A stretch of DNA of 64,000 bases from Vulcanimicrobiota bacterium (GTDB taxonomy: Bacteria > Vulcanimicrobiota > Vulcanimicrobiia > Vulcanimicrobiales > Vulcanimicrobiaceae): contig CAVZQC010000003.1 in NCBI GenBank assembly GCA_963777315.1, positions 11,009 through 75,008 on the forward strand, written 5' to 3'. Below the pieces are notes generated by a model, which ran no database searches, was not told the DNA's origin, and was given only the letters and a program-made list of their open reading frames with translations. The translations under genes were made by a program, and so were the position numbers. Positions 400 through 60,294 of this stretch are shown one piece after another (within the stretch, counting starts at the first letter, position 1; the number at the start of each line of letters is the position of its first letter).

Positions 400-1001
400 T
401 CAACCGAGGGGTAGTATTTCGCGCTCGAACGCGCTGTTGAGCACGATGGCGAGGCGGCATATAAGGCCAACAACGTAGAAAGGATCAAGAAATACCCGCC
501 GATGTGGCCGACACTCGCTCGCGCGTCCAAATAGCAGTGCCGCGAGCGTGAACCCGGGCACGAGTGACCAGAGCAGCGCGACGAATGTTGCGTTGATCTG
601 CAGGCGGCTATGCCCAAGACCAAGGAGATGTACCCGAAGCAGAGCATCCCAACCGCTAGTAGGAGCTGATCGCCCGGTGAGCCGGCGATGACTTTTGCAT
701 GGTTGAGCCAGAGGTATGTGGCGGTCAACGCATTGTTGGCGCCGTACGAGCAGAACGCCGTCCCGGCGAAGGTAGTGCCGTTGCCGAAGACCAGGACGCC
801 GGCGACGAACTGCGCGATGCCGGCGAAGATCAGCCCGGAGCGGACAGCGGCGATAAGCGAGTTGGTAGACGCGAAACCGCCGAAGACCAAGGCGATCACA
901 AGCGTTCCGACGGCGAATCCCAAGAGCCCCATCGCGCTGGGATCGGTGGGCGCTAGGTCTAGCGTTTCAGGCTGGTCGTGTTTGTGCGATGCCGTGGTCA
1001 T
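400..1001 (-). pseudogene. GPR1/FUN34/YaaH (SatP-like) acetate/succinate channel gene, interrupted by about three frame changes
   Basis: Starts at the internal Met of ORF 177..1100 (MTTASHK...DPSAMGLLGFAVGTLV...GNGTTFAGTAFCSYGANN). The C-terminal third is readable only by alternating two frames: ...LGIAA / LQINATFVALLWSLVPGFTLAALLFGRAS / VGHIGGYFLILSTLLALYAA / LAIVLNSAFEREILPLG*. The true stop is at 400-402. Confidence 0.6.
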
Positions 1002-1152
1002 GGGGGCGAAGTTCCTCGAAAACTGCACGAATCGACGAGGCTGGAGAACGGCACGTAGGTTTTGCAAGCCGGAACACGGCGGCACCGGCTGAGACGGCAT
1101 CTCACAGATAAGCGGGATCTTCGACGCGTAACGCCCGCTTCCTGAGGCGAGA

Positions 1153-1204
1153 CCTTCTGCCTAAAACCGCACAGAGTTGCCGGCTTCGCCGGTTTAGACT
1201 GTAC
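1153..1204 (-). promoter_or_regulatory. Conserved intergenic element, copy 1 (minus-strand reading GTACAGTCTAA-N19 hairpin-CTGTGCGGTTTTAGGCAGAAGG)
   Basis: Read directly from the sequence. The spacer holds the hairpin CCGGC-GAA-GCCGG. Lies about 150 nt upstream of the SatP-like gene. Confidence 0.6.
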
Positions 1205-1347
1205 TGGTGCAACCTCGCCGTTCGGTGTGTACCGCTTTCCTCATCGTTCGCAGAAGGCCGCCGATAGACAATTACGCGTTGAAATGAGCCACGGAAGGTC
1301 GGCGCTGTCCTGGCGGCGATTCCGGCATTTCTCGAAGGAGATATGAT

Positions 1348-1560
1348 ATGGCTACTAAGCAAAAGACGTTCAAGACGATCCCCGTTGGTACCAAAGTATC
1401 GTGGCATTACCGCAGTGCCATCGGTCATGGAACGGTCACCGGCGTGTTCAAGATGGGCACCAACGCAGATAACACAATGTACAGCGTGCACGAGACTGAT
1501 CACCACCCGGGCGAACCAGACATCGTGCACCATACCGGCAAAGCACTCAGTCGCGCATGA
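1348..1560 (+). CDS. DUF2945-type small protein (Tudor-like fold family)
   Basis: 70-aa ORF with an AGGAG Shine-Dalgarno 7 nt upstream. KVSWHYRSAIGHGTVTG...HHPGEPDIVHHTGKAL resembles DUF2945 proteins. Confidence 0.7.
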   Translation: MATKQKTFKTIPVGTKVSWHYRSAIGHGTVTGVFKMGTNADNTMYSVHETDHHPGEPDIVHHTGKALSRA

Positions 1561-1924
1561 GTTTTCACGACCTCAAGGTTGCGGTTTCGCCCGCCAGGCT
1601 CTAGAGCTTTGAAATCGACAGTTGCGTCCGCTGCAATGCTCCGGATTATTTGGTCATGCTGGCGCCGATGACGACCGATCGTCGGCGATTTTTTCGGGCT
1701 TGGCCATCCGCCGCAGTGGAATTTCAACAAGCAGCGCCCGACATTTCTCCGCATTTGTTTCAGGGTTCTCGTCCATCATTGTATAGAGCCTAGAATCGGC
1801 GACAGGTAATTCGACCCAGGCCAAGCGCCCACACGGTTCCATGGCAGGGGTGTATCGAGCGGCCCCAGGTGAAGCAAGGGGACGACGCACTTAGCCAACC
1901 GCGCGAAAAGCGCGACTCCGGATT

Positions 1925-1975
1925 CCCTTGTCTAAAACCGCGCGGATTTGCCCATGGCGGCGAGTTAGACTGTAC
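1925..1975 (-). promoter_or_regulatory. Conserved intergenic element, copy 2 (GTACAGTCTAA-N19-CCGCGCGGTTTTAGACAAGGG)
   Basis: Same boxes and the same 19-nt spacing as copy 1. Two substitutions in the 3' box. Confidence 0.55.
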
Positions 1976-2146
1976 TTTGAGAGTACCGTGATTGGAGAGT
2001 CACTGATTGATCGCGATGAATGAAAACAAAAGCTGCAATGCTGCAACGCGCCCGCGACATCCTCAATCTAAGACAGGCAGCTTCATGTCGGGGATGGCCT
2101 AAGATTGACCTCCACGCCAACGTCGCGATAGCTACGGAGCGGCCCC

Positions 2147-2638
2147 ATGATAAGAAATGAACGTTTGGTTTCCGACAAACGGCCTGCGAAAGTTGCCGTA
2201 TCGAGCGCGGTGACTGTGCCCACGCTTTTTGTGGGATCTTTTCCATCCCGGGAATGCGGCATCGCCACCTTTACGAAAGACATCGTCGACAGTTACGATG
2301 CGCACGGCAGGTCTCGGAGCCACGTCGTTGCAATCGACGATCGGTCGGATTTTGGTTACGTCCACGACTCTCGGGTCATCGGCCGCATCAAGGCGAATGA
2401 GCGCCCATCGTATTATGAGGCCGCGTCACTGGCCAATCGTCATCGGTGCGGCGTGGTCAACATACAACACGAATACGGGCTGTTCGGTGGGCAAAACGGT
2501 GAGTGGTGTCTTGACTTCATTAGCGCATTGAAGAAACCCGTCGTCCTCACCTTGCATACGGTTGTTCCGGCGCCGAACTCGGACCCCGTGATCATCCGTC
2601 GCGAAAAGCAACATGAAGAAGCTGTTGACAAAATGTAA
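2147..2638 (+). pseudogene. N-terminal ~160 aa of a GT4-family glycosyltransferase; C-terminal catalytic half is missing
   Basis: LFVGSFPSRECGIATFTKDIVDSYD...NIQHEYGLFGG...PVVLTLHTV is a typical GT4 N-terminal domain. The ORF stops at 163 aa, and no continuation in any frame is visible in 2639-2894. Confidence 0.5.
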
Positions 2639-2894
2639 GATGATGATCTAAGGCGGGAATTCGAACATATAAGGGCGTCTCTTATGAGAGATCCCCAATA
2701 GGCGGCGCCGTTACGCGCCTGCATGCGGCCCGTCGGGCTCGGAGATGAGCGTGATCCGACCATTATTCGTAGCATTTTACGCCATGGCCCGGAAAAGAGC
2801 ACGGCCACTGCCCGAAAGACGACCGATGCTGCAAGTCGGGCTATGGGGCCAGCAGATAGTCTTCGTTATACGCGGTCGAATGCGGAGATCCGAT

Positions 2895-3659
2895 TTAATA
2901 GCCCGTATATTCTTCGACGCGGACGTCATCGCTGGAAACGCCGGTTCCGGTAAGCATGGCCTTCAGGCCCTTTACCATCCCAGGCGGTCCGGTGATGTAA
3001 TAGATGGCGTTCTGCGTCGCATCGGCATAGTTTGCCAACAGTGCGGCGTCGATCTGACGCGTCTCGCCATCCCAGGGCTGCTTGGAGTCTTTCATATCGG
3101 TCATCGTCGCAACCAAGGAGTAGTTGGGATTGGTTTGTTGTAACGCTTGTAGTTCGGCCAAGAACGCTGCGTCTTCCGGACGACGGTTGGAGTAGAACAA
3201 CACGATCCGATGAGGAAGTTTCAGGTGAGCCGCCTGGAAAACGATGCTGCGAAACGTCGTTACGCCAATGCCTCCAGTGAGCAACACCGCCGGGCGAGCA
3301 GCATTCTCGTGTAACGTTAGATCTCCAAATGGTCCTTCGATCCTCGCTCCGCTCCCTAACGGTTCCGATTTCAGGACTCGTTTGAACGCCGTATCTCGCA
3401 TGCGCGTAGTAATCATGATGGAATCTTCATAGGGTGCGCTTGCGATGGAAAACCCGCGCTTATTACCTTCGCCGTCCGTCTCGGGTGGATTCGGAAGCGT
3501 GATGTCGATGAACTGTCCCGCGATAAACGTCCAATCCGGTGGCTTTTGAAATTCGAAAGCCATCGTGCCCTCGGCCACTTGCCGGCGTGCCTTGAGTGGG
3601 GATAAAAATGTCGGCCACGTTGTTGCAGTTTCCACGTTCCAACCTTCGATAAATCGCAA
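2895..3659 (-). CDS. FAD/NAD(P)-binding oxidoreductase of the ferredoxin-NADP reductase (FNR-like) fold
   Basis: RQVAEGTMAFEFQKPPDWTFIAGQFIDITL...RGFSIASAP...LLTGGIGVTTFRSI...YITGPPGMV. The start is uncertain: 3659, or a GTG about 20 nt downstream. Confidence 0.8.
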   Translation of the reverse strand: MRFIEGWNVETATTWPTFLSPLKARRQVAEGTMAFEFQKPPDWTFIAGQFIDITLPNPPETDGEGNKRGFSIASAPYEDSIMITTRMRDTAFKRVLKSEPLGSGARIEGPFGDLTLHENAARPAVLLTGGIGVTTFRSIVFQAAHLKLPHRIVLFYSNRRPEDAAFLAELQALQQTNPNYSLVATMTDMKDSKQPWDGETRQIDAALLANYADATQNAIYYITGPPGMVKGLKAMLTGTGVSSDDVRVEEYTGY

Positions 3660-3697
3660 CTGACAACCTACAGCCGCAGCGCCGTTCCACGAGGGAA

Positions 3698-3748
3698 CCT
3701 TTGCCTAAAACCGCACAGAACTGCACGCCTCGTGCAGTTAGACTGTAG
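3698..3748 (-). promoter_or_regulatory. Conserved intergenic element, copy 3 (CTACAGTCTAA-N19 hairpin-CTGTGCGGTTTTAGGCAAAGG)
   Basis: The spacer holds a 7-bp hairpin, CTGCACG-AGG-CGTGCAG. Lies upstream of the FNR-like gene. Confidence 0.6.
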
Positions 3749-3945
3749 TGGCAGAACTTCGGATATTTGGATACGTGGTTTTGCGGCTTAGTTTAAGCGT
3801 GCCTGACCGCGTGTGACGCGTGCGCAGCTGGCACGACGGAATGCTTCGTGCTCTTCCTTCCTATCGCCGCGATTTTCAAACTCCGCACCGTCGTCCACCA
3901 TATGCTGATGTTCGCACCTCTCGCGACGCTTGGAGCAACTGTTAC

Positions 3946-4557
3946 ATGATCAAACATCTCACTGCAACCTCAATTACAGCCATCGTGCTGCTTACGTCCG
4001 CCGTTCCATTCGCCGCGTTGGGAGCAGCGATGAACCGCTACGGCGGTCCCGTGTACACAGGCGCGCCGGCTCTCGGCACGACGGCGGCCTTGGTGAAAGC
4101 CGGCGGCGGGGCCGGACATTTTTCGCTCGCCACCGCGCTGACCTCAATGGTCGGCCCCAAACTCGTCAACGATGAGGTTGGAAAGTTGACGAAGCAGTAC
4201 GGGAAGCACGCCGTCAGTCAATGGATGACAGGGTTTAATTTTTCGGTGGAAGATTCGTTGCGGCTTGCCGCCAAGGCCGGCGTCAGTCTTCCAAGTCCGA
4301 CCGCCGACTTACACGGCAAAGCGCTAGCGGCTGCGCTCGTTAGTGCAGGCGTCGACCCGCAAACCAATGTGTTCTGGGCCGGTCGACTGTACGACAAGAC
4401 GGTCACTCACGCAATCCACGATCAAGCAATGAACGATATCGACGCCAAGTACGGCGCAACGACGGATATGATCACGCACAAAATTAGCAACCAAGCGATG
4501 TACGATCTTGCGCACTCGCTGGGCGATACACATGTACGTCTTGCGTCGCTGCACTGA
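3946..4557 (+). CDS. Secreted hypothetical protein
   Basis: Internal ATG of ORF 3820..4557 gives [28 protein letters not shown], a signal-peptide-like N-terminus. No family recognised. Confidence 0.5.
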
Positions 4558-4574: not shown

Positions 4575-5414
4575 ATGTTTGCATCTATTCCATTCCTCGT
4601 CGTTTACGCCATCATCGTGTTGCTGCTGATTGCCTCGGTAAAGATTATGCGCGAGTACGAACGGGCTGTGCTCTTTCACCTTGGCCGCTTCCGTAGCGTC
4701 AAAGGCCCAGGGCTGATTCTGGTGATTCCGTTCATCCAGCAAATCGTACGCGTGGATCTGCGTGTGGTGGTCATGGAAGTGCCGACGCAGGATGTAATAT
4801 CGAAGGACAACGTGTCGATGAAGGTTGACGCGGTCCTATATTTCCGCGTGGTCGACGCGGAGAAAGCCATCATTCAGGTCGAAAACTTCTTGCCCGCCAC
4901 GAATATGCTTGCCCAGACGACTCTACGGTCGGTGCTCGGCGAGCATGAGCTTGACGAGATGCTGTCTGAGCGAAATAAACTCAACGCCGACGTGCAGACG
5001 ATCGTAGACGCGCAAACGGAAGCCTGGGGAATTAAAGTCAGCAACGTTGAGATTCGCACGGTCGAGTTGACGGAAAACATGATTCGGGCAATTGCGAAGC
5101 AAGCCGAAGCGGAGCGCGACCGGCGCGCGAAAGTCATTCATGCCGAAGCCGAGTTCCAGGCTGCACAGAATCTGGTCAATGCTGCGCAAATTCTTGCGAG
5201 TATTCCCGCGGCCATGCAACTGCGCTATCTCCAAACGCTCAGCGAGATCGGCGCAGAACAAAACTCCACAACGATCTTCCCGATGCCCATAGACCTCATC
5301 AAGCCGTTCTTGGAAATTCTTGATAAAAAAGCGGCAGTGCCCGTATCCCTTGTTGCTACGGACATGTCGATACCCGCTCCGGATTCGAACGGACGGCCGC
5401 TGAGCCCAACGTAA
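4575..5414 (+). CDS. SPFH/band-7 (stomatin/slipin-like) membrane protein
   Basis: N-terminal TM segment followed by [14 protein letters not shown]...[12 protein letters not shown]...[22 protein letters not shown]...[17 protein letters not shown]. Confidence 0.9.
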
Positions 5415-6342: not shown

Positions 6343-8150
6343 TGGATGAAAGCGGACATCCGGTTTATCGCGCGGACGTTCTGGTCATCGGAGCGGGCGG
6401 CGCAGGACTTCGGGCAGCGATCGAAGCTCCGGCAGCCGGTGCGCACGTGGCGATCGTCTGCAAATCGCTTCTCGGCAAAGCGCACACGGTCGTCGCCGAA
6501 GGCGGCATCGCCGCGGCAATCGGCAGCGTAGATCGGGAAGACACGTGGCAAGTCCATTTCCGCGATACGATGGCCGGCGGTAAATACGTCAACGATTGGC
6601 GGATGGCGGAACTGCTTGCGCGCGAAGCGCCGGGTGAGATTCATAATCTCGAGCAGTGGGGCGCGCTCTTCGATCGCACGCCGGAGGGCGGCATCATGCA
6701 GCGGCTTTTCGGCGGGCACACCTTTAGCCGGCTGGTTCAGGTTGCGGACCGAACCGGGATCGAACTCATTCGAACGCTACAAGACCGAACCGTGGAACTT
6801 AAGCTCGACGTGTACATGGAGTATACGATTACGCGGCTGCTGCTGCGCGACGGACGCATCGCCGGCGCAGCGGGCTACGTTCGCGAAACGGGCCGCTTCG
6901 TGGTGTTCGAGGCGCCCGCCGTGATCGTGGCCACCGGCGGTTCCGGACGACTGTACTCCGTCACGTCGAACTCCTGGGAAGGCACGGGTGACGGCCACGC
7001 GCTCGCGTTCGCCGCCGGCGCCGAACTCATCGACATGGAATTCGTGCAGTTTCACCCGACCGGCATGGTGTGGCCCTTAAGCGTGCGCGGCATTCTGGTC
7101 ACCGAATCGGTGCGCGGCGAGGGTGGCATTCTTACGAACAGCACGGGCGAGCGGTTCATGCAGCGCTACGACCCGAAACGCATGGAACTTTCCACGCGCG
7201 ACATCGTCGCGCGCGCGATTCATACCGAGGTTACCGAGGGGCGCGGCTCGCCGCACGGCGGCGCATTCTTGTCGATCGCGCACAAGTCCGCAAAGTTCAT
7301 CAAACGGAAATTGCCCTCAATGTACAGCCAGTTCATGGAGTTCGCACACGTGGATATTACCAAGGAGCCGATGGAGGTGTACCCCACGACGCATTACATC
7401 ATGGGCGGTATCCGTGTCGATCCCGAAACTGCGGCGACGACCGTACCTGGCTTGTTCGCCGCCGGCGAATGCGCGGGTGGTTTGCACGGCGCGAATCGGC
7501 TGGGCGGAAACTCGCTCTCCGATCTGCTCGTCTTCGGCCGGCGAGCCGGCGCGGCTGCGGCGGCGTATGCGCGCAGCGCCGACCGCCCTATGCCAGAGCC
7601 GCTGCAGATCGAATGTGCGGAGCACGAGATGCTCGCGCCTTTCGAGCCCGGCGATGGCGAGAATCCATTCGCGGTGCAGGAAGATCTGCAGAGCATGATG
7701 ATGGCAAACGTCGGCGTGTTTCGCACGGAGCAGGGATTGCGGAATGCGCTCGACCGGCTAGACGGCCTTCGCAGACGGGCCGCCAATGCGCGCGCTACCG
7801 GTTCAAGGCTCTACAATCCGGGTTGGCACACGGCGCTCGACCTCAAGCACATGGTGCAGATCGCCGAAGCGATCGTGCGGGCCGCGCTGCTGCGATGCGA
7901 GAGCCGTGGTGCCCACACACGCGTCGATTTTCCAGCTTTGGACGGTGCACTGGAAAAGGTCAATACGGTGACAACGATGGTCGATGGAGCAATGCAGACG
8001 ACGTTCGTCGAGCGCGCGCGCATGCCGGGTAATCTCGCACGTATCCTGTTCCCAAACGTTGCCTCCAACGGCGAACTGACGGGATACGATAAAACGCTGG
8101 CCGATTCGTTTCCCGCCAGCGATCCGCCGCCCGGACCGTTGACGATCTAA
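6342..8150 (+). CDS. sdhA: Succinate dehydrogenase/fumarate reductase flavoprotein subunit
   Basis: Internal Met of ORF 6165..8150: ADVLVIGAGGAGLRAAIEA...HTVVAEGGIAAA...FVQFHPTGM...ESVRGEGG...GGLHGANRLGGNSL...ESRGAH. Confidence 0.9.
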   Translation: MDESGHPVYRADVLVIGAGGAGLRAAIEAPAAGAHVAIVCKSLLGKAHTVVAEGGIAAAIGSVDREDTWQVHFRDTMAGGKYVNDWRMAELLAREAPGEIHNLEQWGALFDRTPEGGIMQRLFGGHTFSRLVQVADRTGIELIRTLQDRTVELKLDVYMEYTITRLLLRDGRIAGAAGYVRETGRFVVFEAPAVIVATGGSGRLYSVTSNSWEGTGDGHALAFAAGAELIDMEFVQFHPTGMVWPLSVRGILVTESVRGEGGILTNSTGERFMQRYDPKRMELSTRDIVARAIHTEVTEGRGSPHGGAFLSIAHKSAKFIKRKLPSMYSQFMEFAHVDITKEPMEVYPTTHYIMGGIRVDPETAATTVPGLFAAGECAGGLHGANRLGGNSLSDLLVFGRRAGAAAAAYARSADRPMPEPLQIECAEHEMLAPFEPGDGENPFAVQEDLQSMMMANVGVFRTEQGLRNALDRLDGLRRRAANARATGSRLYNPGWHTALDLKHMVQIAEAIVRAALLRCESRGAHTRVDFPALDGALEKVNTVTTMVDGAMQTTFVERARMPGNLARILFPNVASNGELTGYDKTLADSFPASDPPPGPLTI

Positions 8151-14319: not shown

Positions 14320-15345
14320 TCAACCGTCTGCGCTGTACTCGGCGCAGTTCTTCTCGGTTTCCCAAACCTTGATGCAGCGCAACGTGGCGACGCCTCGGAA
14401 GTGCGGCGCAAGCCGATTCCAGAACGCCACGGCCAGGTTCTCGGCGGTGGGAATGCATCCCACAAGCCACGGCACGTCGGTGTTCAAATTGCGGTGGTCG
14501 ACGTGCTCGATGATCTCGCGACCGATAAGGTGCGAGAGCTCCTTCAGATCAGCGACGTAGCCCGTTGAAGCATCGGCTTTCCCGCCGATGGCGACTTCGA
14601 GCACATAGTTGTGGCCGTGGAGATTCACACATTTTCCGAACAAGCGCCGGTTTTCGTGATCGGGAAGATCCGGGTCGCATAGTTGGTGAGCGGCGCTGAA
14701 CGATTCGCGGCGGCTAATGCGGAGTTCGGCACGGCGGGCGACGCCGTTCCTTCCTTCGGCGCGCGCCAAAAATTCCGCGCGGGCGCCGGCATCGTCGCGA
14801 AGCGCGCCGAGCAGCATCGAGGTCGCGGTCTTCGTACCCGGTTTTTGCACACCGCGAAGCGACATGCACAGATGCTCCGCTTCGAGTACCACGCCAACGC
14901 CCTTGGCATTCAAGGAGTGCTGGAGGCTATTGGCAATCTGCGCGGTGAGATGCTCTTGCGTTTGGAGGCTGCGCGCAAAGTGCTCCACCAGGCGAACCAA
15001 CTTGGAGAGACCGACGATTCTGCCCACCGGCAGATAACCGATGTGCGCAACTCCGACGAACGGCAAAAGATGGTGACGACATAGCGAGTGGAACGGGATC
15101 GCGCGCATGAGCACGAGGCCATCGTAACGCTCCTCGTTCGCAAAGGTCGTCATCGCGAACGCCGGCGGAGTGACCATCTCCGCGAGCGCCGCTGCAACGC
15201 GCCTTGGCGTTTCCGCGAGGTCTTCTTCCGATGGATCGAAGCCGAGGGCGATAAGCAAGTTTCTGGCGGCCTTCTGCACCGCAGGCACGTCGACGGCACG
15301 CTCGGCCTCATCGCACGCGAGCCCGAATGTCACAGCAGCGCGCAT
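14320..15345 (-). CDS. folE: Fusion protein: GTP cyclohydrolase I (FolE) plus a 6-carboxytetrahydropterin/6-pyruvoyltetrahydropterin synthase (QueD/PTPS) domain
   Basis: N-terminal half: ETPRRVAAALAEM...FHSLCRHHLLPFVGVAHIGYLP...GLSKLVRLVEHFARSLQTQE...HLCMSLRGV. C-terminal half: SFSAAHQL...GKCVNLHGHNYVLEV...DHRNLN...TAENLA. One uninterrupted ORF. Confidence 0.85.
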   Translation of the reverse strand: MRAAVTFGLACDEAERAVDVPAVQKAARNLLIALGFDPSEEDLAETPRRVAAALAEMVTPPAFAMTTFANEERYDGLVLMRAIPFHSLCRHHLLPFVGVAHIGYLPVGRIVGLSKLVRLVEHFARSLQTQEHLTAQIANSLQHSLNAKGVGVVLEAEHLCMSLRGVQKPGTKTATSMLLGALRDDAGARAEFLARAEGRNGVARRAELRISRRESFSAAHQLCDPDLPDHENRRLFGKCVNLHGHNYVLEVAIGGKADASTGYVADLKELSHLIGREIIEHVDHRNLNTDVPWLVGCIPTAENLAVAFWNRLAPHFRGVATLRCIKVWETEKNCAEYSADG

Positions 15346-15368: not shown

Positions 15369-15758
15369 TTATCGCCTTCCGGTTGTCGCATTTGTCGATC
15401 GCAATCGGCGCTTCAATACGCCGCGCAACACGACGGCTTCGTTGTGTTCGGTATCCTTTGCGCCGTAGATCAGCGTTATAGCGTGTCTGGGTTTCGCGTG
15501 AGTGACGATAGCCGCAATTGTCTCGCGCGCCTCGGATTCTTTCAGCTCGGCTTTATAGCGCTTCTCGAACTCGGGCCAACGCTCGGGATCATGACCGAAC
15601 CACTTCCGTAAAGCGGTGCTCGGTGAAACGCCTTTCGCCCACATATCGAGATGAAGGCTGACTTTACTGACCCCACGTGGCCAGAGCCGGTCGACCAGTA
15701 CACGAAAGCCGTCGTTCCTCGTTCGTTTTTCGTACGCGCGTTTCAATAGAAGTTCCAC
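15369..15758 (-). CDS. DUF488 (YeaO-type) protein
   Basis: KRAYE...DGFRVLVDRLWPRGVSK...DMWAKGVSPSTALRKWFGHDPERWPEF...ITLIYGAKDTEHN. Confidence 0.85.
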   Translation of the reverse strand: MELLLKRAYEKRTRNDGFRVLVDRLWPRGVSKVSLHLDMWAKGVSPSTALRKWFGHDPERWPEFEKRYKAELKESEARETIAAIVTHAKPRHAITLIYGAKDTEHNEAVVLRGVLKRRLRSTNATTGRR

Positions 15759-15822: not shown

Positions 15823-15872
15823 ACAGCATAATCGGTTCGGAAGCCGAGAGTCTGTGCGCTTTTAGACGGCGG
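15823..15872 (+). promoter_or_regulatory. Conserved intergenic element, copy 6 (plus strand: ACAGCATAA-N20 hairpin-CTGTGCGCTTTTAGACGGCGG)
   Basis: Same boxes as the other copies, oriented toward the hemerythrin gene about 160 nt downstream. Confidence 0.55.
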
Positions 15873-16030
15873 AGATGAACCTTCTGGGGCTACGATTCAG
15901 GAGGTCGATTGAGGCGCAGCCGCTGTCGCCTGATGAGCCTATTTAAGGAAGGGAATGCATGCTAAGGGATTGGTTAATCGAGTTTGCCACCTGCCAGCGC
16001 TACGAATAGAACGAAGAAAGAAGACCCCGA

Positions 16031-16501
16031 ATGAACGCGATCACTTTACTGAAAGCCGATCACAATGCCGTCCAAGGCTTGTTACAGCAAATCAAATGTC
16101 TCGACGAGTCAGCGCATGGACAGCGGCGAGAACTCTTTCGACAGATCGATAAAGAGCTAACCCTGCATTCCAAGATTGAAGAAACGATCTTTTATCCCGC
16201 GCTCAAGCAAAAGGCTTCGTTTTCGGACGACGATGATGCTACACAGGAGGTTCTGGAGGCATACGAAGAGCATGCCAACGTGAAGAGCATGCTGCAAAGG
16301 TTGGAAAGTACCGATGCGGCGGACGAGACGTACAACGCGAAACTTCAGGTGCTGAGCGAGTTGGTGAAACATCACGTGCACGAAGAAGAGCACGAGATGT
16401 TCAAAGAAGCGAAAGACCTGATGAGTGAATCGGAGCTCGAGCAGCTTGGAGCACAATTGGCGCAAGCCAAAGAGCAGATGCTCAGCAGGGCCGCTGTATA
16501 G
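16031..16501 (+). CDS. Hemerythrin-domain protein
   Basis: LLKADHNAVQGL...LTLHSKIEETIFYPAL...EHANVK...HHVHEEEHEMF. Confidence 0.85.
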   Translation: MNAITLLKADHNAVQGLLQQIKCLDESAHGQRRELFRQIDKELTLHSKIEETIFYPALKQKASFSDDDDATQEVLEAYEEHANVKSMLQRLESTDAADETYNAKLQVLSELVKHHVHEEEHEMFKEAKDLMSESELEQLGAQLAQAKEQMLSRAAV

Positions 16502-16512
16502 AAGCGCCGCGG

Positions 16513-17055
16513 CTGCTCACGCTCGGACACGGAACTGCGAGTGAGGATGACCTCGCGCGGCTCATTCGGGGAGCCGCGATCCAATCGCTCGTCGACGTCC
16601 GCACCGTCCCCAAAAGCCGCCGCCATCCGCAGTTTTGGCGCGAAGAGATGGAGCGCTGGGTCCCGGAACGCAGTGGAAGCACGTATCGCTGGGAGCCCGC
16701 TCTGGGGGGCTTTCGCAAGACCAACCGCAACAGCCATAACGTCGCGCTGCGCCACCCTTCGTTTCGCTCGTATGCAGATTACATGGAAACCGAGGCCTTC
16801 GCAATCGCACTCAAAGACGTTCTCGCGCAAGTGACGATGGTGCAGCTGGCGATCATGTGTTCGGAGACCGTTTGGTGGCGTTGCCACCGCCGGCTCATCT
16901 CGGATGCCGCACTCCTGCTCCACGGCGTTCCGGTGCGGCACTTGATGCACGACGGCAAACTGCGGCCGCACATTCCCACGGCCGGCGTTCGCACGACGGC
17001 GGAGGGAATGCTCCGCTATGACGTACTGTTCGAGACCGCTGACATTATGGAGTGA
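16513..17055 (+). CDS. DUF488-family protein (long form) with no canonical start codon ahead of its conserved N-terminus
   Basis: The frame opens after a stop at 16426-16428. LLTLGHGTASEDDLARLIRGAAIQSLVDVRTVPKSRRHPQFW precedes the first ATG (16648). The paralog at 48944 has ATG where this copy has CGG. CTG at 16513 is the only plausible start. Confidence 0.6.
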   Translation: MLTLGHGTASEDDLARLIRGAAIQSLVDVRTVPKSRRHPQFWREEMERWVPERSGSTYRWEPALGGFRKTNRNSHNVALRHPSFRSYADYMETEAFAIALKDVLAQVTMVQLAIMCSETVWWRCHRRLISDAALLLHGVPVRHLMHDGKLRPHIPTAGVRTTAEGMLRYDVLFETADIME

Positions 17056-22229: not shown

Positions 22230-22649
22230 TTACAGCACCGGATAGCCCAGGCCGCCGCCCCAATAGGGTGCGTAACCGTAGTAGCCGTAGTACGGGCCCC
22301 AGAACTCGGGGTTTCGGATCTCATCGAGCTTCGGATCGTATGCAGGCGAGTTCACAACGTGCTCGCGCGTGTGCTTAATGCTCACCGCGTCCGGGGTAAT
22401 GCTCGAAACCGCTTCGACGGGAATCAAGAAGTGGCGCTCGCCTAGTCCAAGAAAACCACCTGCGGCAACTTGGAGCATCCGGACTTTTCTCTTGTCTTGA
22501 TCGATGAACAGATCACTGACGTGCCCGATGTCTTCGCCGTGCTGATCCAGCACTTTTCGTTCTCGAATGTCTTGGTCCGGCGCTGAAACGGTGAGGTTCG
22601 CGTCGCTTAATTTGACGAGGACATCTTTTTCTTGCGAGTCTTGTGGCAT
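22230..22649 (-). CDS. PRC-barrel domain protein with a Gly/Tyr-rich C-terminal tail
   Basis: Start at Met 115 of ORF 22230..22991, preceded by an AGGA Shine-Dalgarno. VLDQHGEDIGHVSDLFIDQDKRKVRMLQVAAGGFLGLGERHFLIPVEAV, with the tail WGPYYGYYGYAPYWGGGLGYPVL. Confidence 0.8.
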   Translation of the reverse strand: MPQDSQEKDVLVKLSDANLTVSAPDQDIRERKVLDQHGEDIGHVSDLFIDQDKRKVRMLQVAAGGFLGLGERHFLIPVEAVSSITPDAVSIKHTREHVVNSPAYDPKLDEIRNPEFWGPYYGYYGYAPYWGGGLGYPVL

Positions 22650-22761: not shown

Positions 22762-22810
22762 CCGCTGTCTAAAACCGCACAGATTCCCCGCTTCCTGTGG
22801 CTTAAAATGG
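22762..22810 (-). promoter_or_regulatory. Conserved intergenic element, copy 4 (CCATTTTAA-N19-CTGTGCGGTTTTAGACAGCGG)
   Basis: Same 3' box and 19-nt spacing as the other copies. Lies upstream of the PRC-barrel gene. Confidence 0.55.
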
Positions 22811-22846: not shown

Positions 22847-23212
22847 ATGCTTTTGAGCAATCGGCCTCGGACAATATCGCTGCTCGCCCTCCTGATACCG
22901 CTGGTGAGCGCATGTTCGCACGGCACAAGTTCTCAAAGTCCAACATCCCGCTTGTCGCCTTCGGCAACGCAGCTTTCGGGCAGTGTTTCACGAGGCGCCG
23001 TCGTGTTTGCCACCAACTGCGCGGTTTGCCATGGAGCTTCCGGAAAGCAGGGGGGCGTCGGCCCGTCCCTTGCTTACGAACGCGGCCGAAAGAATGACGC
23101 CGCGACCATTTCCTGGATCAAAAACCCGGCGCCGCCGATGCCCAAACTCTACCCCTCGCCTTTGAGCGCGCAAGACGTTGTGGACGTCGCCGCCTACGTG
23201 CAGTCGTTATAG
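22847..23212 (+). CDS. Monoheme class I cytochrome c lipoprotein
   Basis: Internal Met of ORF 22643..23212. Lipobox LVSAC, heme motif NCAVCHG, and a distal PPMP Met region. Confidence 0.8.
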   Translation: MLLSNRPRTISLLALLIPLVSACSHGTSSQSPTSRLSPSATQLSGSVSRGAVVFATNCAVCHGASGKQGGVGPSLAYERGRKNDAATISWIKNPAPPMPKLYPSPLSAQDVVDVAAYVQSL

Positions 23213-23227: not shown

Positions 23228-23953
23228 ATGGCTGATGGTAAGACCGCACCGATCGATCGCCGCGGCTTTTTGAAGACGAGCGCCGCGGGGCTGTTGCTTG
23301 GAACGAGCGCGGTCGGCGGATGCGCGCCGAAGATGGCCGATACTTCAACCAACGCGGCGCAGGAAGCCCGACGAACCGCTCTGCTTTTTTTCACGCAGAC
23401 GGAAGCGAACACGGTCATCGCCATGGCCGAACGCGTCTTCCCGGCTGACGCAAACGGTCCCGGCGCAACCGATACGCACGTGATGCAGTTTTTGGACCGT
23501 CGATTGGACGGCGCGTATGGACTCGGCGCGACGATGTACCTGCAGGGGCCGTTTGTCAAACCGCAGACGAGCGGGCACGGGTGGCAGATTCCCGCCACAC
23601 CGCGGGACGTCTATCGCGATGCCATCGCGGCTATAAACGTGTTCGCTTCCGCTAAACACGGAAGCCAATTTTACAATATCCCCATCGAGCAGCAAGATGC
23701 GGTTCTTGCTGCTGCCGAGAAGGGCCACATCGACTCCTTCCATATCTTTAAGTCGGACGACTTTATGACGCTGTTCATCACGCATGTTACCCAAGGGTTG
23801 TTTGCCGATCCCCTCTACGCCGGAAACTACGGCGTAGTCGGATGGAAATTCATAGGATTTCCCGGCGACCCCATGGCGTACGGCGATCAATATGAAAAAT
23901 TGATCGATCAGTACAAGACGTCTTACAACGTAACGCCGGAGCCGTTACAGTGA
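23228..23953 (+). CDS. Gluconate 2-dehydrogenase subunit 3 family protein (Tat-exported small subunit)
   Basis: Twin-arginine motif DRRGFLKTSAAGLLLG. FFTQTEANTVIAMAERVFPAD is typical of this family. Overlaps the next gene by 4 nt. Confidence 0.85.
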   Translation: MADGKTAPIDRRGFLKTSAAGLLLGTSAVGGCAPKMADTSTNAAQEARRTALLFFTQTEANTVIAMAERVFPADANGPGATDTHVMQFLDRRLDGAYGLGATMYLQGPFVKPQTSGHGWQIPATPRDVYRDAIAAINVFASAKHGSQFYNIPIEQQDAVLAAAEKGHIDSFHIFKSDDFMTLFITHVTQGLFADPLYAGNYGVVGWKFIGFPGDPMAYGDQYEKLIDQYKTSYNVTPEPLQ

Positions 23954-25695
23954 TTACGCATAAAGAGGTGGACGCCGTGACGATCGGCGTGGGCTGGACC
24001 GGTGGAATCTTAGCCGCCGAGTTGACGAAAGCGGGGCACACGGTCGTCGGCCTCGAACGCGGCGGTCCGCGCACCACCCAAGATTGGCAAAACGATCACG
24101 ATGAGCTGCGCTTCGCCGTCGATAATGCCCTGATGCAGAAGATGGCCGTCGAGAGTTGGACGCTGCGCCATGACCTACGCGAAACGGCACTCCCGTTTCG
24201 GCAACTCGGTTCCTTTCTGCCCGGGATTGGCGTTGGCGGTGCCGGAGTCCATTGGAACGGCCAGACGTACCGATTCCATCCCAGCGACTTCATCATGCGA
24301 AGCCATCTGATCCAGCGGTACGGCAAGCAAATGCTCCCTGCCGATTGCACGATTGCCGACTGGGGCATCACGTGGACTGAGATCGAGCCGTACTACGACA
24401 AATTCGAATATATGGCCGGCGTTGCGGGCAAGGCCGGCAACGTCAAAGGCAAGATCATCGCGGGCGGCAATCCCTTCGAAGGTCCCCGTGCACGCGATTA
24501 CGCGTTACCGCCCGCCAAGCTCGCGGAAACGACGGTACTCTGGGGCCAAGGCTGCACTAAAATGGGATACCACCCCTTCCCGCAACCGTCGTCAAATTTG
24601 CCGGAAGCCTATACGAATCCCGACGGCATCGCTCGTGCGGCCTGCACCTACTGCGGCTTTTGCGAGCGCTTTGGCTGTGAAGTCGGAGCCAAAGCGGATC
24701 CGACCGTCACCGTATTGCCGGTTGCGCAACGCAGCGGGAAATATGAATTGCGCACGGGCGTTAACGTCATCCGCATTAACCACGACGGGAAGCGCGCGCG
24801 CAGCGTCACGTATATCGACCGCCTGGGTGAGGAACACGAACAGCCCGCGCACATCATCCTGCTCACGGCGTTCGTTTTCAATAACTGCAAACTGCTGCTC
24901 GTTTCGAAGATGGGTCGGCCGTACGACCCGCACAGCGGCCAAGGCGTCGTGGGCCGCAACTACGCCTATCAAACGACGCAAGGCCACACGGGCTTTTTCG
25001 ATGATAAGTCGTTTAAGCGCTACATGGGCTCAGGCGCGAATGCGGTGACGATCGACGACTTCAACGCCGATAACTACGACCATCACGGCCTCGGCTTTTT
25101 CGGCGGCGGTTCGATCTACTGTCAAAACACTGGGGCGCGGCCAATAACGCAAGTGAGCGTCCCTGAGGGTACGCCGAAGTGGGGCGCACGGTGGAAGGCA
25201 GCGCTCAAAAAGTATTACGACGCGCAAATGGAGATCGTCTATCAGGGGGAGAGCCCATCATATCGAGCGCACAGTTTGGATCTCGATCCGACCTACCGCG
25301 ACGCCTACGGGCTCCCGCTCACGCGCATCACGTTCGACTACACCGAGAACGAGCGCAAGATGGTACGGTTCGGCGCAGACAAAGTGCGAGGCATTCTGCA
25401 TGCGGCGGGCGCTTCGCACATGAACGTGCATCCCGAACTCGAGCCGCACTACAGCACCGTCCGCTATCAAACCACGCATAATGTCGGCGGCTGCATCATG
25501 GGAAACGATCCCGGCAATTCAGTCGTCAATAACTATCTGCAGATGTGGGATTTTGACAACGTCTTTGTCATCGGCGCCTCCGCTTTTCCGCAGAATGCGG
25601 GATTCAATCCAACCGATACCGTTGGCGCCCTTTCATATCGGGCTGCGGACGGAATCATCAATCATTACATGAAGAAACCCGGACCGTTGGTCTAA
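23950..25695 (+). CDS. GMC-family FAD oxidoreductase (large subunit of a gluconate-2-dehydrogenase-type enzyme)
   Basis: VDAVTIGVGWTGGILAAEL...CTYCGFCERFGCEVGAK...HNVGGCIMG...NVFVIGASAFPQN. Confidence 0.9.
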   Translation: MITHKEVDAVTIGVGWTGGILAAELTKAGHTVVGLERGGPRTTQDWQNDHDELRFAVDNALMQKMAVESWTLRHDLRETALPFRQLGSFLPGIGVGGAGVHWNGQTYRFHPSDFIMRSHLIQRYGKQMLPADCTIADWGITWTEIEPYYDKFEYMAGVAGKAGNVKGKIIAGGNPFEGPRARDYALPPAKLAETTVLWGQGCTKMGYHPFPQPSSNLPEAYTNPDGIARAACTYCGFCERFGCEVGAKADPTVTVLPVAQRSGKYELRTGVNVIRINHDGKRARSVTYIDRLGEEHEQPAHIILLTAFVFNNCKLLLVSKMGRPYDPHSGQGVVGRNYAYQTTQGHTGFFDDKSFKRYMGSGANAVTIDDFNADNYDHHGLGFFGGGSIYCQNTGARPITQVSVPEGTPKWGARWKAALKKYYDAQMEIVYQGESPSYRAHSLDLDPTYRDAYGLPLTRITFDYTENERKMVRFGADKVRGILHAAGASHMNVHPELEPHYSTVRYQTTHNVGGCIMGNDPGNSVVNNYLQMWDFDNVFVIGASAFPQNAGFNPTDTVGALSYRAADGIINHYMKKPGPLV

Positions 25696-29175: not shown

Positions 29176-29345
29176 GTGAAATTAGTAACTGCAATAAATG
29201 CGCAAGCCTCGAGCATGCGACGCTGATTACGGAATCCAATGAATTCGCGAACTATGATGTCGGCAACGATACCTGCACGCTCGTCCATCGACATGCAGCC
29301 CTTGAATGGCAGGCAATTACTGGCGCGCCTGCCGATCGACCCTAA
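29176..29345 (+). pseudogene. Frameshifted paralog of the small gene at 51508..51759
   Basis: The GGAGA-N4-GTG start context and VKLVTAINAQA are conserved. A 1-nt deletion relative to the paralog (gcctcgag versus gctctcaag) shifts the frame; afterwards HATLITESNEFANYDVGNDTCTLVHRHAALEWQAIT reads in the other frame. Confidence 0.45.
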
Positions 29346-32176: not shown

Positions 32177-32221
32177 TATGGTCTAAGATCGGGTCATAGC
32201 GACCATGCGCTTTTGAAAAGC
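32177..32221 (+). promoter_or_regulatory. Conserved intergenic element, copy 7 (TATGGTCTAA-N16 hairpin-CCATGCGCTTTTGAAAAGC)
   Basis: A variant copy lying between two plus-strand genes. ACAG...CTGT of the other copies is replaced by ATGG...CCAT. Confidence 0.45.
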
Positions 32222-48328: not shown

Positions 48329-48800
48329 TCACTTCAGCGCGTCGCCGTACTTACCCGAGAGGTTCTCATTTACTTGACCGGTTTCGCCGGCCCAGGGCTG
48401 CTTGGAGTCCTTCATGTCCGTCATCGTCGCAACCAAGGTATAGCGCGGGTTGATCCTCCTGGCGGCGGTTGGAATAAAACAGCACGATACGATGCTGCAG
48501 CTTGAGATGAGCCGCTTGGACGACGATGCTCCGAAACGTCGTGATACGTGTAATGTCAGGTCTCCGAATGGACCCTCGATGTTCGTGGCGCTCTCCAATG
48601 CTTCGGATTTCAAGACGCGTTTAAACGCCGTGCCTCGCGTACGCGTAGCGATCATAATATGTTCTTCGTACGGAGCGCTTGCAACGGAAAAGCCGCGTAT
48701 TGCCTTCGCTGTCGTTCTCAGGCGGAATTGGAAAGCGTGATGTCGATAAACTGCCCGGCCGTAAACGTCCAATCGGCCGGCTTTGAAATTCGAAAGCCAT
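48329..48800 (-). pseudogene. Decayed paralog of the FNR-like gene at 2895..3659
   Basis: MAFEFQ-, then frameshifted. FSVASAPYEEHIMIATRTRGTAFKRVLKSEALESATNIEGPFGDLTLH and YTLVATMTDMKDSKQPWAGETGQV match the intact copy. Internal deletions are present, and the upstream element is retained in degraded form. Confidence 0.7.
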
Positions 48801-48845
48801 CGTGCCCTTAGCGGCTTGCTCGCCTTAAGCGGCGATATAAACGTC

Positions 48846-48892
48846 GGCCACCAAACCGCACAGATAACGTGGACATTTGCCCCCTACGGTGC
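48846..48892 (-). promoter_or_regulatory. Conserved intergenic element, copy 5 (degenerate; the CTGTGCGGTTTGG box is retained, the 5' box is lost)
   Basis: Lies upstream of the FNR-like pseudogene, in the same relative position as copy 3. Confidence 0.4.
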
Positions 48893-48943
48893 AACGATGA
48901 ATCGCGACATTTTTGCTGGGCCGCGGCCCAACGCTACGATAGT

Positions 48944-49499
48944 ATGAGGCGCATGCTGCTCACGCTCGGACATGGAACTGCGGCTGAGGATGAACTTGCG
49001 GCAATCATTCGTGGAGCGGGGTTCGAGTCGCTCGTCGACGTCCGCACTGTCCCTAAGAGCCGTCGTCATCCGCAGTTTTGGCGCAAAGAGATGGAACGCT
49101 GGGTCCCGGAACGCAGTAGAAGCGCGTATCGGTGGGAGCCGGCTTTGGGCGGCTTTCGAAAAGCCAATCGCAATAGCCATAACGTCGCCTTGCGTCATCC
49201 TTCATTTCGCTGGTATGCCGATTACATGGAGACCGATGCCTTCGCAGTCGCGCTCGACGACCTTCTCGCGCAAACGAGGACGGCGCAGGTGGCGATCATG
49301 TGTTCCGAAACCGTTTGGTGGCGCTCTCACCGCCGGCTGATATCGGATGCCGCGCTCCTGCTTCATGGCGTTTCCTGTGCAGCACGTAATGCACGATGGC
49401 AAACTTCGGCCGCACATTCCCACGGCCGGTGTTCGCACGACGGCGGAGGGAACGCTCCGTTATGACGTACTGTTCGAGACCGCTGACGCTATGGATTAG
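48944..49499 (+). pseudogene. DUF488-family gene, paralog of 16513..17055, frameshifted near its 3' end
   Basis: MRRMLLTLGHGTAAEDELAAIIRGAGFESLVDVRTVPKSRRHPQFW...AIMCSETVWWRSHRRLISDAALLLHGV. One extra nt near 49374 follows. The conserved ending HVMHDGKLRPHIPTAGVRTTAEGTLRYDVLFETADAMD* reads in the next frame. Confidence 0.65.
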
Positions 49500-51358: not shown

Positions 51359-51478
51359 GTCCGCGTACCCGAGGCCGCCGCTCCAATAGGGAGCGTAACC
51401 GTAATACCCGTAATACGGCTTCCAGGACTCGCCGCTCGGGATTTGCGCTAACTTTGGGTCGTATGCAGGACACTGGAC
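51359..51478 (-). pseudogene. Orphan 3' fragment of a PRC-barrel gene, paralog of 22230..22649
   Basis: PAYDPKLAQIPSGESWKPYYGYYGYAPYWSGGLGY compares with PAYDPKLDEIRNPEFWGPYYGYYGYAPYWGGGLGY in the intact gene. DNA similarity is clear by eye. No upstream PRC-barrel domain is present. Confidence 0.55.
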
Positions 51479-51507: not shown

Positions 51508-51759
51508 GTGAAACTCGTAAACGCAATAAATGCCCAAGCTCTCAAGCATGCCACGCTGATCGCGGAATCGAACGAGTTTGCGATCTACGATGTCGGCAAT
51601 GATACCTACGCGCTCGTGCATCGGCATGCAGCCGTTGAATGGCAAGCCATTACGATCTCGGGCGACGGCCTCTTCCGCGTGCTCGAAATATTGGCTCAGG
51701 CTACCCGCACCTTGTACCGAGATGTCGCGGGTGAGCTTTCAAAGCAACGGCGCTCCTAG
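51508..51759 (+). CDS. Small (83 aa) hypothetical protein
   Basis: GTG start with a GGAGA Shine-Dalgarno 4 nt upstream. VKLVNAINAQALKHATLIAESNEFAIYDVGNDTYALVHRHAAVEWQAITISGDG... A frameshifted paralog lies at 29176. Confidence 0.45.
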   Translation: MKLVNAINAQALKHATLIAESNEFAIYDVGNDTYALVHRHAAVEWQAITISGDGLFRVLEILAQATRTLYRDVAGELSKQRRS

Positions 51760-59799: not shown

Positions 59800-60294
59800 C
59801 TAGGCTTTCTTTTTGCGGCCGCCCTTGCGGCGTCCGCCGGCGCTCTTGCGCCCGCCTTTACGGCCGGCTGCAGCTTTGCGCGTCGATTTGCGTCCGCCTT
59901 TGCGTGCGCTGGATTTCTTGCGTCCGCCCTTCTTGCGTCCGCCGGTCGACTTCTTGCGTCCGGAAGATTTCTTGCGTCCGCCGGTCGATTTTTTGCGTCC
60001 GGAAGATTTCTTGCGTCCGCCGGTCGATTTCTTGCGTCCCGAAGATTTCTTGCGTCCGTTGCTTTTCTTGCGTCCGCCGGTCGATTTCTTGCGTCCACCC
60101 GTCGACTTCTTGCGTCCGCCGCCCGACGATTTACGTCCGCCTTTGCGTCCGGCCGCTTTACGCGCGGTGCTCTTGCGGCCGCCGGCCGATTTTCGGCCGT
60201 TCGATTTCTTACGGCCGCCCTTGCGGCGACCGCCTCGGCGTGACGAGCCTTCGTCGCCCATCGTTCCGCCGTTTTCCATCATGTCGGAATCCAT
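59800..60294 (-). CDS. 164-aa polycationic low-complexity protein with tandem GGRKKS(T/S) repeats (histone-H1-like / nucleoid-associated?)
   Basis: ATG 60294 preceded by a GGGAGG Shine-Dalgarno with a 5-nt spacer. A short acidic N-terminus (MDSDMMENGGTMGDEGSS) is followed by about 145 aa made almost only of G, R, K and S. All the other long ORFs across this repeat lack start signals. Confidence 0.7.
   Translation of the reverse strand: MDSDMMENGGTMGDEGSSRRGGRRKGGRKKSNGRKSAGGRKSTARKAAGRKGGRKSSGGGRKKSTGGRKKSTGGRKKSNGRKKSSGRKKSTGGRKKSSGRKKSTGGRKKSSGRKKSTGGRKKGGRKKSSARKGGRKSTRKAAAGRKGGRKSAGGRRKGGRKKKA
59905..60125. repeat. Imperfect tandem DNA repeats (39-bp unit made of 21 nt + 18 nt, CTTGCGTCCGCCGGTCGATTT + CTTGCGTCCGGAAGATTT) inside the polycationic gene
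   Basis: Read directly from the sequence. At least three near-identical 39-bp units plus degenerate flanking units, all in frame (13 aa per unit). Confidence 0.8.

Follow-up and report, generated by a model that had tools for sequence, protein, structure and literature searches.

A recurrent intergenic element of Eremiobacterota as a probable regulator-dependent promoter of class II-like geometry

In promoters of the sigma-70 type, T-12, A-11 and T-7 are the critical positions of the -10 hexamer, and class II activators classically bind at -41.5 from the transcription start. The NtcA-activated promoters of cyanobacteria combine the motif GTA-N8-TAC with TAN3T at a distance of about 22 nt. SdrP from Thermus thermophilus has been described as a class II activator that acts on stress and stationary-phase genes independently of cAMP, and its in vivo site TTGTG-N9-CNC is reported as asymmetric and as lying adjacent to the -35 region or overlapping it (PMC8465061). 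The subject of this study is an intergenic element of about 50 nt that recurs in a stretch of 64,000 nucleotides from a Vulcanimicrobiota bacterium (GenBank assembly GCA_963777315.1, contig CAVZQC010000003.1, positions 11,009 to 75,008), to which we refer as the window. A first-pass annotation had described seven copies of it, in which a 5' box and a 3' box flank a variable hairpin at fixed spacing, and had proposed either a shared promoter with a structured 5' leader or a regulator-binding site in front of the genes towards which it read the element. We call the strand of that reading the annotated strand and keep its names for the two boxes.

The Eremiobacterota (WPS-2) occur widely in soils and peat, very few of them have been cultured, and to our knowledge almost nothing is known about their gene regulation. 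The comparisons reported here suggest that the element is probably, though by no means certainly, a regulator-dependent promoter of the sigma-70 housekeeping type, located on the strand opposite to the annotated one and resembling promoters with class II activators. It is best read as a regulon-wide module in a subset of Eremiobacterota. From the earlier proposal, the shared promoter containing a regulator site is kept; the structured leader is not supported.

Conservation and geometry of the element

The repeat is real and far beyond chance. In the window, AGTCTAA-N14-24-GCGGTTTTAG has three exact matches compared with none in 100 shuffles, the 14-mer CTGTGCGGTTTTAG is present in three exact and several near copies, and a repeat search grouped four copies as one family (D6). 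The seven annotated copies were evaluated by nhmmer with a profile of 24 aligned copies (alignment A1):

3698-3748, annotated on the minus strand: copy 3, E = 1e-15
1153-1204, annotated on the minus strand: copy 1, E = 2e-13
1925-1975, annotated on the minus strand: copy 2, E = 3e-13
22762-22810, annotated on the minus strand: copy 4, E = 6e-10
15823-15872, annotated on the plus strand: copy 6, E = 4e-7
48846-48892, annotated on the minus strand: copy 5, E = 0.27
32177-32221, annotated on the plus strand: copy 7, no match

Copies 1, 2, 3, 4 and 6 are solid. We treat copy 5 as a decayed relic: of the element, only CTGTGCGGTTT and a correctly spaced hexamer survive there, and it adjoins a reductase pseudogene within duplicated sequence. 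Copy 7 is ruled out as a member, as it has no profile match and lacks the invariant bases.

In alignment A1, the only invariant columns of the 5' box are A13, T17 and A18, which on the opposite strand become T-12, A-11 and T-7 of TAnnnT. All 30 copies collected in this study have TAnnnT on the opposite strand (TAGACT, TACACT, TAAAAT, TATGCT, TACAAT, TATACT and others). The -10-like hexamers noticed earlier in the 5' box do exist on the annotated strand as TACAGT or TATAGT, but in just 15 of the 30 copies. The conserved C20 provides a G at -14 of the opposite strand in about 23 of 28 copies. Hexamer and 3' box are 30 or 31 nt apart in every copy (n = 30), counted from the invariant A of the 5' box to the G of GCGG, so that the fixed spacing is borne out in a form stricter than originally claimed. 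The -35 position reads CAGATA (3/6) with a spacer of 17-18 nt, and a consensus promoter scan detected no canonical sigma-70 promoter at the elements. On the annotated strand, neither a conserved -35 nor one of the extracytoplasmic function (ECF) type was found 5' of the 5' box in an anchored alignment of 60 nt.

The 3' box is nearly invariant over columns 39-57 of alignment A1, in part because the copies were found with this box. The putative regulator site is a 22-bp block (columns 38-59) with the consensus cTTTGCCTAAAACCGCACAGAT on the opposite strand, where the element runs from cTTTGCCTAAAACCGCACAGAT through an unconstrained stretch of 13-14 nt to G-n-TAGACT. In the register of CRP, the site reads TGTGC-N6-AGRCA with an outer TGT...RCA dyad, and its centre lies between the second and third T of TTTT. 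The distance from this centre to the first base of the -10 is 29.5 bp (30-nt type) or 30.5 bp (31-nt type) in 30/30 copies, placing the centre at -41.5 or -42.5 relative to a start predicted 7 nt after the -10. Columns 36/38 to 59, which make up the conserved block, cover about -31 to -52, a span over which the footprint of a 22-bp CRP-type site would be expected. The TGTGC half is CRP-like, G42/C55 are invariant and symmetric, and T41/A56 are symmetric, whereas AGRCA and the conserved centre break the dyad. A class II geometry could account for the one-sided extra conservation of ATATC as well as for the missing conserved -35, and the 19-nt "variable hairpin" of the first-pass annotation would then be the spacer between the -35 and -10 positions. 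A mini open reading frame (ORF), GTG-CGG-TTT-TAG, within the 3' box was ruled out because the CTGCGCGG and CCGTACGG variants lose the start codon.

These features might be combined into the following mechanism. TAGACT (TAnnnT), preceded by the G at -14, would be the -10 box, and CAGATA would be a poor -35 box at the 17-18 nt spacer. The 22-bp block would bind a dimeric regulator, and a class II activator centred at -41.5/-42.5 would contact RNA polymerase directly, thereby offsetting the weak -35. We infer that the bound protein activates and does not repress, and the most likely regulator would be a member of the Crp/FNR family with four invariant cysteines. Because of the approximate dyad, a second -10 at the mirror distance occurs in some copies, in which the site might then serve two divergent promoters. 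Transcription would thus run against the direction assumed earlier: the invariant bases make up a -10 of the opposite strand, and the 3' box would lie upstream at about -42, outside the transcript.

Outside the window, 25 further copies were identified in metagenome-assembled genomes (MAGs) of Eremiobacterota and in metagenomes. The proteins encoded in the window have their best matches in Eremiobacterota, and exact look-ups of two of them returned no entry. A scan of the GTDB species genomes with the 17-mer CTGTGCGGTTTTAGRCA returned 53 loci, of which only six have the 5' box at the same distance, all of them in MAGs of Candidatus Eremiobacteraeota/Vulcanimicrobiota; the other loci are chance or coding matches. 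Nine more copies came from a metagenome scan, and the remaining ones from relaxed searches within the fetched loci. Random placement, as of a miniature inverted-repeat transposable element (MITE), had been considered in the first-pass annotation; instead, all copies are intergenic and at promoter positions, and orthologous positions keep their copies across genomes while the spacers diverge. The element is patchy within the phylum. It was not found in L077 (Meridianibacter) or in the Acidobacteria homologue L079 (L numbers are our labels for the compared loci). L075 has no element although its reductase is 91% identical and its neighbouring genes belong to the same families, and this lineage has either lost the element or never gained it. 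The DUF488-reductase intergenic region of L075 (9947-10000) is only 54 nt long and retains just half-site-like GGTACGGTTTG / GGTACGGTTTGTTGAAGG. A literature search with the core sequence returned only CRISPR guide scaffolds, and one on Eremiobacterota promoters found nothing relevant.

Direction of transcription and the candidate regulator

Every copy in the window, when read in the opposite orientation, has a gene downstream on the same strand. DUF488 recurs as a partner (copy 6, relic copy 5 and copy c of L050), and genes for secreted proteins and/or SPFH proteins are found downstream of copy 3 and in L007, L056, L061 and L062. Copy 2 and five copies downstream of crp, the Crp/FNR-family gene described below, have no gene in the annotated direction and a gene on the opposite side. 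In these five loci (L012, L014, L050, L054 and L081), the copy is located just downstream of crp and the annotated strand points into the 3' end of crp, whereas on the opposite strand the -10 is followed after 7-10 nt by the start codon (ATG) of a small acidic ORF beginning with ME(R)xxRIHPSDPGPDE. Variation of this ORF over the five loci peaks at third codon positions (39 vs 28 and 22), which together with the short distance from -10 to ATG is the pattern of a leaderless gene. The ORF of 44-61 residues (ME(R)xxRIHPSDPGPDE..DDPIFPDD) is directly downstream of crp and convergent with it, and has no Pfam match. Its positions are:

L014, about 4056-4240, plus strand: small acidic ORF
L012, about 6690-6860, minus strand: small acidic ORF
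L050, 7359 onward: small acidic ORF
L054: small acidic ORF
L081, 1405-1665: small acidic ORF

In six copies the other side of the site has a TAnnnT as well, again at 29.5-30.5 bp, compared with about one expected by chance in 30. Such mirror hexamers include TACGAT before the hemerythrin gene (copy 6), TACAAT before a glycosidase-like gene (copy c of L050), and TAYAGT, from which 7 nt lead to the ATG of the FNR-like reductase, in L050 (start 3120), L053, L061 and L062. The reductase starts of these four loci lack a Shine-Dalgarno sequence, and the observations suggest that the phylum uses leaderless mRNAs. The crp genes have TAAGCA or TAAGAA at the mirror position. Some of the copies therefore seem to have a site shared by divergent promoters, which could explain why the reductase and crp are so often on the annotated side. 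In the window, the genes for SatP (copy 1), the reductase (copy 3) and the PRC-barrel protein (copy 4) have no mirror hexamer and are therefore not counted as targets of the site, so most of the target genes listed in the first-pass annotation are replaced by different genes on the opposite strand. The stress flavour that it had noticed is retained in the revised set: Hva1_TUDOR; the secreted and SPFH proteins; cytochrome c with a GMC-type dehydrogenase; DUF488 with a pterin-synthesis gene; and hemerythrin via its mirror -10.

In related loci, a protein of 260 residues with an HTH_Crp_2 domain and a weak cNMP_binding match is encoded beside the site. Its gene, crp, adjoins the site in 10/10 loci with homologues at least 74% identical (L012, L014, L050, L054, L057, L058, L065, L067, L081 and L082). 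Usually crp and a STAS-domain gene diverge from each other, and five loci have a further copy of the element flanking crp in inverted orientation; crp sometimes adjoins SpoIIE or sigma70_r4 genes. We located crp as follows (proteins P0121-P0240):

L012, 6963-7754, minus strand: crp
L014, 3172-3969: crp
L057, 1643-2437: crp
L054, 3230-4012: crp

The subfamily is large (3921 proteins at E <= 1e-10). Its four invariant cysteines (C158, C168 and those of a C-terminal CECY motif) hint at a redox or metal sensor, and the subfamily may be such a sensor tied to a partner-switching module. The nearest solved structure is SdrP (TTHA1359; PDB 2zcw), with E = 2.6e-5 over the helix-turn-helix (HTH). The recognition helix RSGV is invariant among homologues down to 57% identity. 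In our alignment by eye, the arginine equivalent to R180 of CRP is retained and E181 is replaced by serine. In CRP bound to DNA, R180 recognises the outer G, and recognition of the inner G:C pair falls to E181. The retained arginine and the lost glutamate would fit the site, in which the outer G42/C55 are invariant and symmetric and the inner pair is not. Its linkage to the site makes this Crp-family protein the most likely candidate for the regulator.

A second conserved block, TTAATAATTGCAAATGTAAGC, is common to the crp-STAS intergenic regions of L012, L014, L050, L058 and L065, located on the STAS side some 20-45 nt past the -10, and L053 and L062 have a similar ATTGCAATAT. This block could belong to the 5' leader of the STAS transcript or represent another operator.

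The predicted parts and candidate targets in the window are:

1155..1176, plus strand: copy 1 regulator site, reading CTTCTGCCTAAAACCGCACAGA, centred at about -41.5 from the predicted plus-strand start
1195..1200, plus strand: copy 1 -10 TAGACT, predicted start near 1207
1348-1560, plus strand: Hva1_TUDOR gene, candidate target of copy 1
1926..1947, plus strand: copy 2 regulator site, with the variant CCGCGCGG on the annotated strand
1966..1971, plus strand: copy 2 -10 TAGACT, the next plus-strand ORF being 2147-2638
3699..3720, plus strand: copy 3 regulator site
3739..3744, plus strand: copy 3 -10 TAGACT
3820-4557 and 4575-5414, plus strand: secreted protein and SPFH/Band 7 gene, candidate targets of copy 3
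22763..22784, plus strand: copy 4 regulator site
22803..22808, plus strand: copy 4 -10 TAAAAT
22847-23212: cytochrome c, candidate target of copy 4, with GGAG 7 nt before the ATG
23228-23953 and 23950-25695: Gluconate_2-dh3 and GMC oxidoreductase, further candidate targets of copy 4
15850..15871, minus strand: copy 6 regulator site, apparently used both ways
15825..15830, minus strand: copy 6 -10 TATGCT
15369-15758 and 14320-15345, minus strand: DUF488 and GTP cyclohydrolase I/PTPS gene, candidate targets of copy 6
15891..15896, plus strand: copy 6 mirror -10 TACGAT, 30.5 bp from the site centre, with hemerythrin (16031-16501) as candidate target
48844..48890, plus strand: relic copy 5 (annotated at 48846-48892), with the left half-site CTGTGCGGTTT and TACGGT at the right spacing, the right half-site being lost

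A terminator-like hairpin at 1663-1697 closes the unit of copy 1. In the annotated direction, copy 2 faces only a fragment of an SDR-like gene and the antisense of this plus-strand hairpin, which is overlapped by the 78-residue minus-strand ORF (1654-1890) that had been named as a possible downstream gene. The ORF contains IPLRRMAKPEKIAD, resembling a C-terminal motif of short-chain dehydrogenases, and is probably a gene fragment. Relic copy 5 is flanked by the reductase pseudogene (48329-48772, minus strand) and a DUF488 paralogue (48869-49465, plus strand). Paralogous segments of 76-91% identity pair 16512-17051 with 48955-49495 and 2895-3659 with 48329-48784, and further ones pair 22238-22346 with 51361-51469 and 29208-29320 with 51541-51653. 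They include the DUF488 genes as well as the reductase and its truncated copy, which points to a past duplication of part of the stress-gene region. Elsewhere in the window, dense tandem repeats of 18/21 nt (TTCTTGCGTCCGCCGGTCGA...) at 59810-60240 lie inside an ORF, whose product is probably a basic low-complexity repeat protein.

RNA structure and rival explanations

The comparison with Rfam and the covariation analysis, both suggested with the first-pass annotation, gave no match and no covarying helix. Rfam 15 had no matches in the whole window at gathering thresholds, and when positions 1000-4000 were scanned by E-value, no match up to E = 5 coincided with an element. RNAalifold on 24 copies yielded no consensus structure (-0.21 kcal/mol). 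A GUCUAA/UUAGRC helix has 87.5% of its cells paired when G-U is included, only because both boxes are conserved; none of its pairs is altered on both sides, and almost every shuffle scores at least as high. In an alternative fold (UACAG/CUGUG plus UGCC/GGCA), one of nine pairs is changed on both sides, no better than in shuffles. The idea of a structured 5' leader is thus not supported. The individual hairpins named earlier do exist in copies 1, 3 and 6, but they are weak family-wide, and 12 of the 30 copies have no meaningful hairpin (minimum free energy of -1.8 kcal/mol or weaker). The group-averaged minimum free energy of the spacers is -3.77 kcal/mol compared with -2.59 (standard deviation 0.42) in dinucleotide shuffles, with 0/400 shuffles as low. 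A sub-threshold match to the Glutamine-II riboswitch at 1364-1442 on the plus strand (19.3 bits vs a gathering threshold of 33, E = 0.11) falls inside the Hva1_TUDOR coding sequence and is most likely due to chance.

The spacer self-complementarity, together with the TAnnnT on the annotated strand in 15/30 copies, could be explained by transcription in the annotated direction. TACAGT would then be the -10, transcription would start at the spacer, and the mRNA would present a variable 5' hairpin followed by the single-stranded box CUGUGCGGUUUUAGGCA as a site for a protein, small RNA or ligand. The pairing of GUCUAA with UUAGRC through G-U (87.5% of cells) and the reductase and crp on the annotated side in many genomes are also compatible with this model. 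We nevertheless consider it unlikely: the hexamer is missing in half of the copies, compared with 30/30 on the opposite strand, and both candidate helices lack compensatory changes and have values reached by shuffles. The RNAalifold energy of -0.21 kcal/mol, the lack of an Rfam match and the 12/30 hairpin-less copies speak against it as well. Furthermore, no gene follows in that direction at copy 2 or at the five copies located downstream of crp, and the model leaves the invariant A18 and the conserved C20 unexplained. If both promoters existed back to back, a protein bound at the block could act as a repressor on a shared operator, occluding the opposite-strand -35 while sitting at about +13 to +34 of the TACAGT promoter. 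The block does overlap the -35 position, the quasi-palindrome TAnAnTnTA gives a -10 on both strands in half of the copies, and autorepression of Crp/FNR-family genes from sites overlapping their promoters is known. Such repression seems improbable to us, as the weak -35 (CAGATA, 3/6) and the absence of any other activating element make an unassisted promoter unlikely, and exact distances of 29.5-30.5 bp on both sides are a requirement of activation, not of repression.

The orientation proposed here could also be combined with an alternative sigma factor, for example one controlled by the STAS/SpoIIE partner-switching genes near crp, for which the block would be an extended -35 or UP-type element. 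The rigid spacing of 30-31 nt in 30/30 copies, the contiguous and asymmetric conservation and an A-tract at -41 to -44 would suit such a factor, STAS genes are divergent from crp in most loci, and genes with SpoIIE or sigma70_r4 domains are nearby in L082 and L083. However, TAnnnT with a G at -14 is a -10 of the housekeeping kind, unlike those of group 3/ECF factors, and the conserved block reaches -52, far past a -35 element. Mirror -10 hexamers at equal distance fit a bound dyadic protein better than a directional contact of sigma, and no sigma gene is consistently linked to the sites; we give this possibility a low probability. The mere look of conserved boxes around a variable, partly palindromic centre might instead suggest a mobile or recombination repeat, such as a MITE, a repetitive extragenic palindrome (REP) or a site resembling integron attC. 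GTCTAAC is similar to RYYYAAC, the inverse core of attC, three of the copies fall within 2.6 kb, and inverted copies flank crp in five loci. But the copies are all intergenic at promoter positions, with orthologous positions kept and spacers diverged; we saw neither terminal inverted repeats nor target duplications nor linkage to an integrase or transposase, and GGTTTTAG does not match the attC core GTTRRRY. Placement and core sequence effectively refute the attC/MITE reading, and mobile origins in general are extremely improbable.

Several observations weigh against the activator-dependent promoter on the opposite strand, which we still prefer. TACAGT on the annotated strand is retained in half of the copies, and the positions of start and site all depend on the predicted -10. 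The association of the reductase and crp across genomes concerns the annotated side, where a mirror -10 is present in only some such copies. The self-complementarity of the spacers modestly exceeds that of shuffles (by about 1.2 kcal/mol), an excess that this reading does not account for. Conservation is higher in the centre CGGTTTTAG than in the half-sites on either side, and the site has a clear asymmetry; both are atypical for CRP/FNR, although the high conservation of the core is partly due to ascertainment, as the copies were found with that core. No Crp-family gene is present within the 64-kb window, and homologues of 57% identity (L083, L084) share the recognition helix without a clear site upstream.

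As a speculation with little probability behind it, the element might work as a two-way redox switch. One dimer of a hitherto uncharacterised Crp-family sensor with four cysteines would sit 41.5 bp from two divergent promoters, and TAnAnTnTA, a palindromic -10 facing both ways, would fire a counter-transcript through the bound site, with a stabilising hairpin at the 5' end of this transcript. Upon binding, one stress or dormancy gene set would be turned on and the other off, with feedback on the regulator by the small leaderless acidic protein and the STAS protein encoded beside crp.

Comparison with described promoters

The module is sharply defined by a 22-bp site, a fixed distance to the -10, evidence for leaderless genes and a candidate regulator, which makes the regulon directly testable. 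The predicted regulon comprises hemerythrin, the FNR-like reductase, cytochrome c with its dehydrogenase, DUF488, SPFH, Hva1 and STAS proteins. The pattern TGTGCGGTTTTAGRCA-N23-24-[A-N3-TA] is ready to use as a search pattern for genome annotation.

Comparison by eye with the promoters of sigma-54, sigmaB/SigF (GTTT-N14-17-GGGTAT), cyanobacterial SigF (TAGGC...GGTAA) and sigma-28, and with the RfaH ops element, the Irr ICE box, the IdeR box, CIRCE, the marbox and LexA boxes, failed at the spacing or at key bases. The element shares with riboswitch-like leaders of Rfam that it is short, conserved and intergenic, recurs before a coherent gene set and has boxes flanking a variable stem. It differs from RNA leaders in having no covariation, consensus fold or Rfam match, and in that its conserved bases fit a -10 on the other strand.

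The arrangement is similar to class II CRP/FNR promoters of Escherichia coli, such as galP1 and FNR-activated ones, whose site is centred at -41.5: in the element, a site of about 22 bp has its centre 41.5-42.5 bp before the predicted start, a poor -35 lies within reach of this site and is overlapped by it, and the -10 is TAnnnT. Read in the 5-6-5 register, the TGTGC half-site and the outer TGT...RCA dyad also resemble those of E. coli CRP/FNR, as does a Crp-family gene beside its presumed site. In contrast to the E. coli CRP site, the second half-site is AGRCA instead of TCACA, and the central GGTTTT is conserved as the half-sites are. The candidate regulator has four invariant cysteines and only a weak cNMP-domain match, unlike E. 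coli CRP/FNR, and RSGVT (aligned by eye) takes the place of RETVGR, the recognition motif of CRP (PMC8465061). Compared with SdrP, only the HTH region aligns, with the recognition residues VRETVTK in SdrP and RRSGVTI in the candidate, and the SdrP in vitro consensus AWTGTRA-N6-TYACAWT is symmetric, unlike the element.

The NtcA promoters share the 3-8-3 core (TGC-N8-GCA in the element), followed after 23-24 nt by TAnnnT with no usable -35, and likewise reuse one regulon-wide module before many genes. The triplets, phylum and signal differ, and the NtcA site is symmetric, whereas the element is extended on the promoter-proximal side (ATATC). In kind, the element would be a conventional activator-dependent promoter, not a new type of element; what is new is the specific motif, the rigid geometry, the apparent two-way use and the linked four-cysteine Crp-family gene, in a poorly known phylum.

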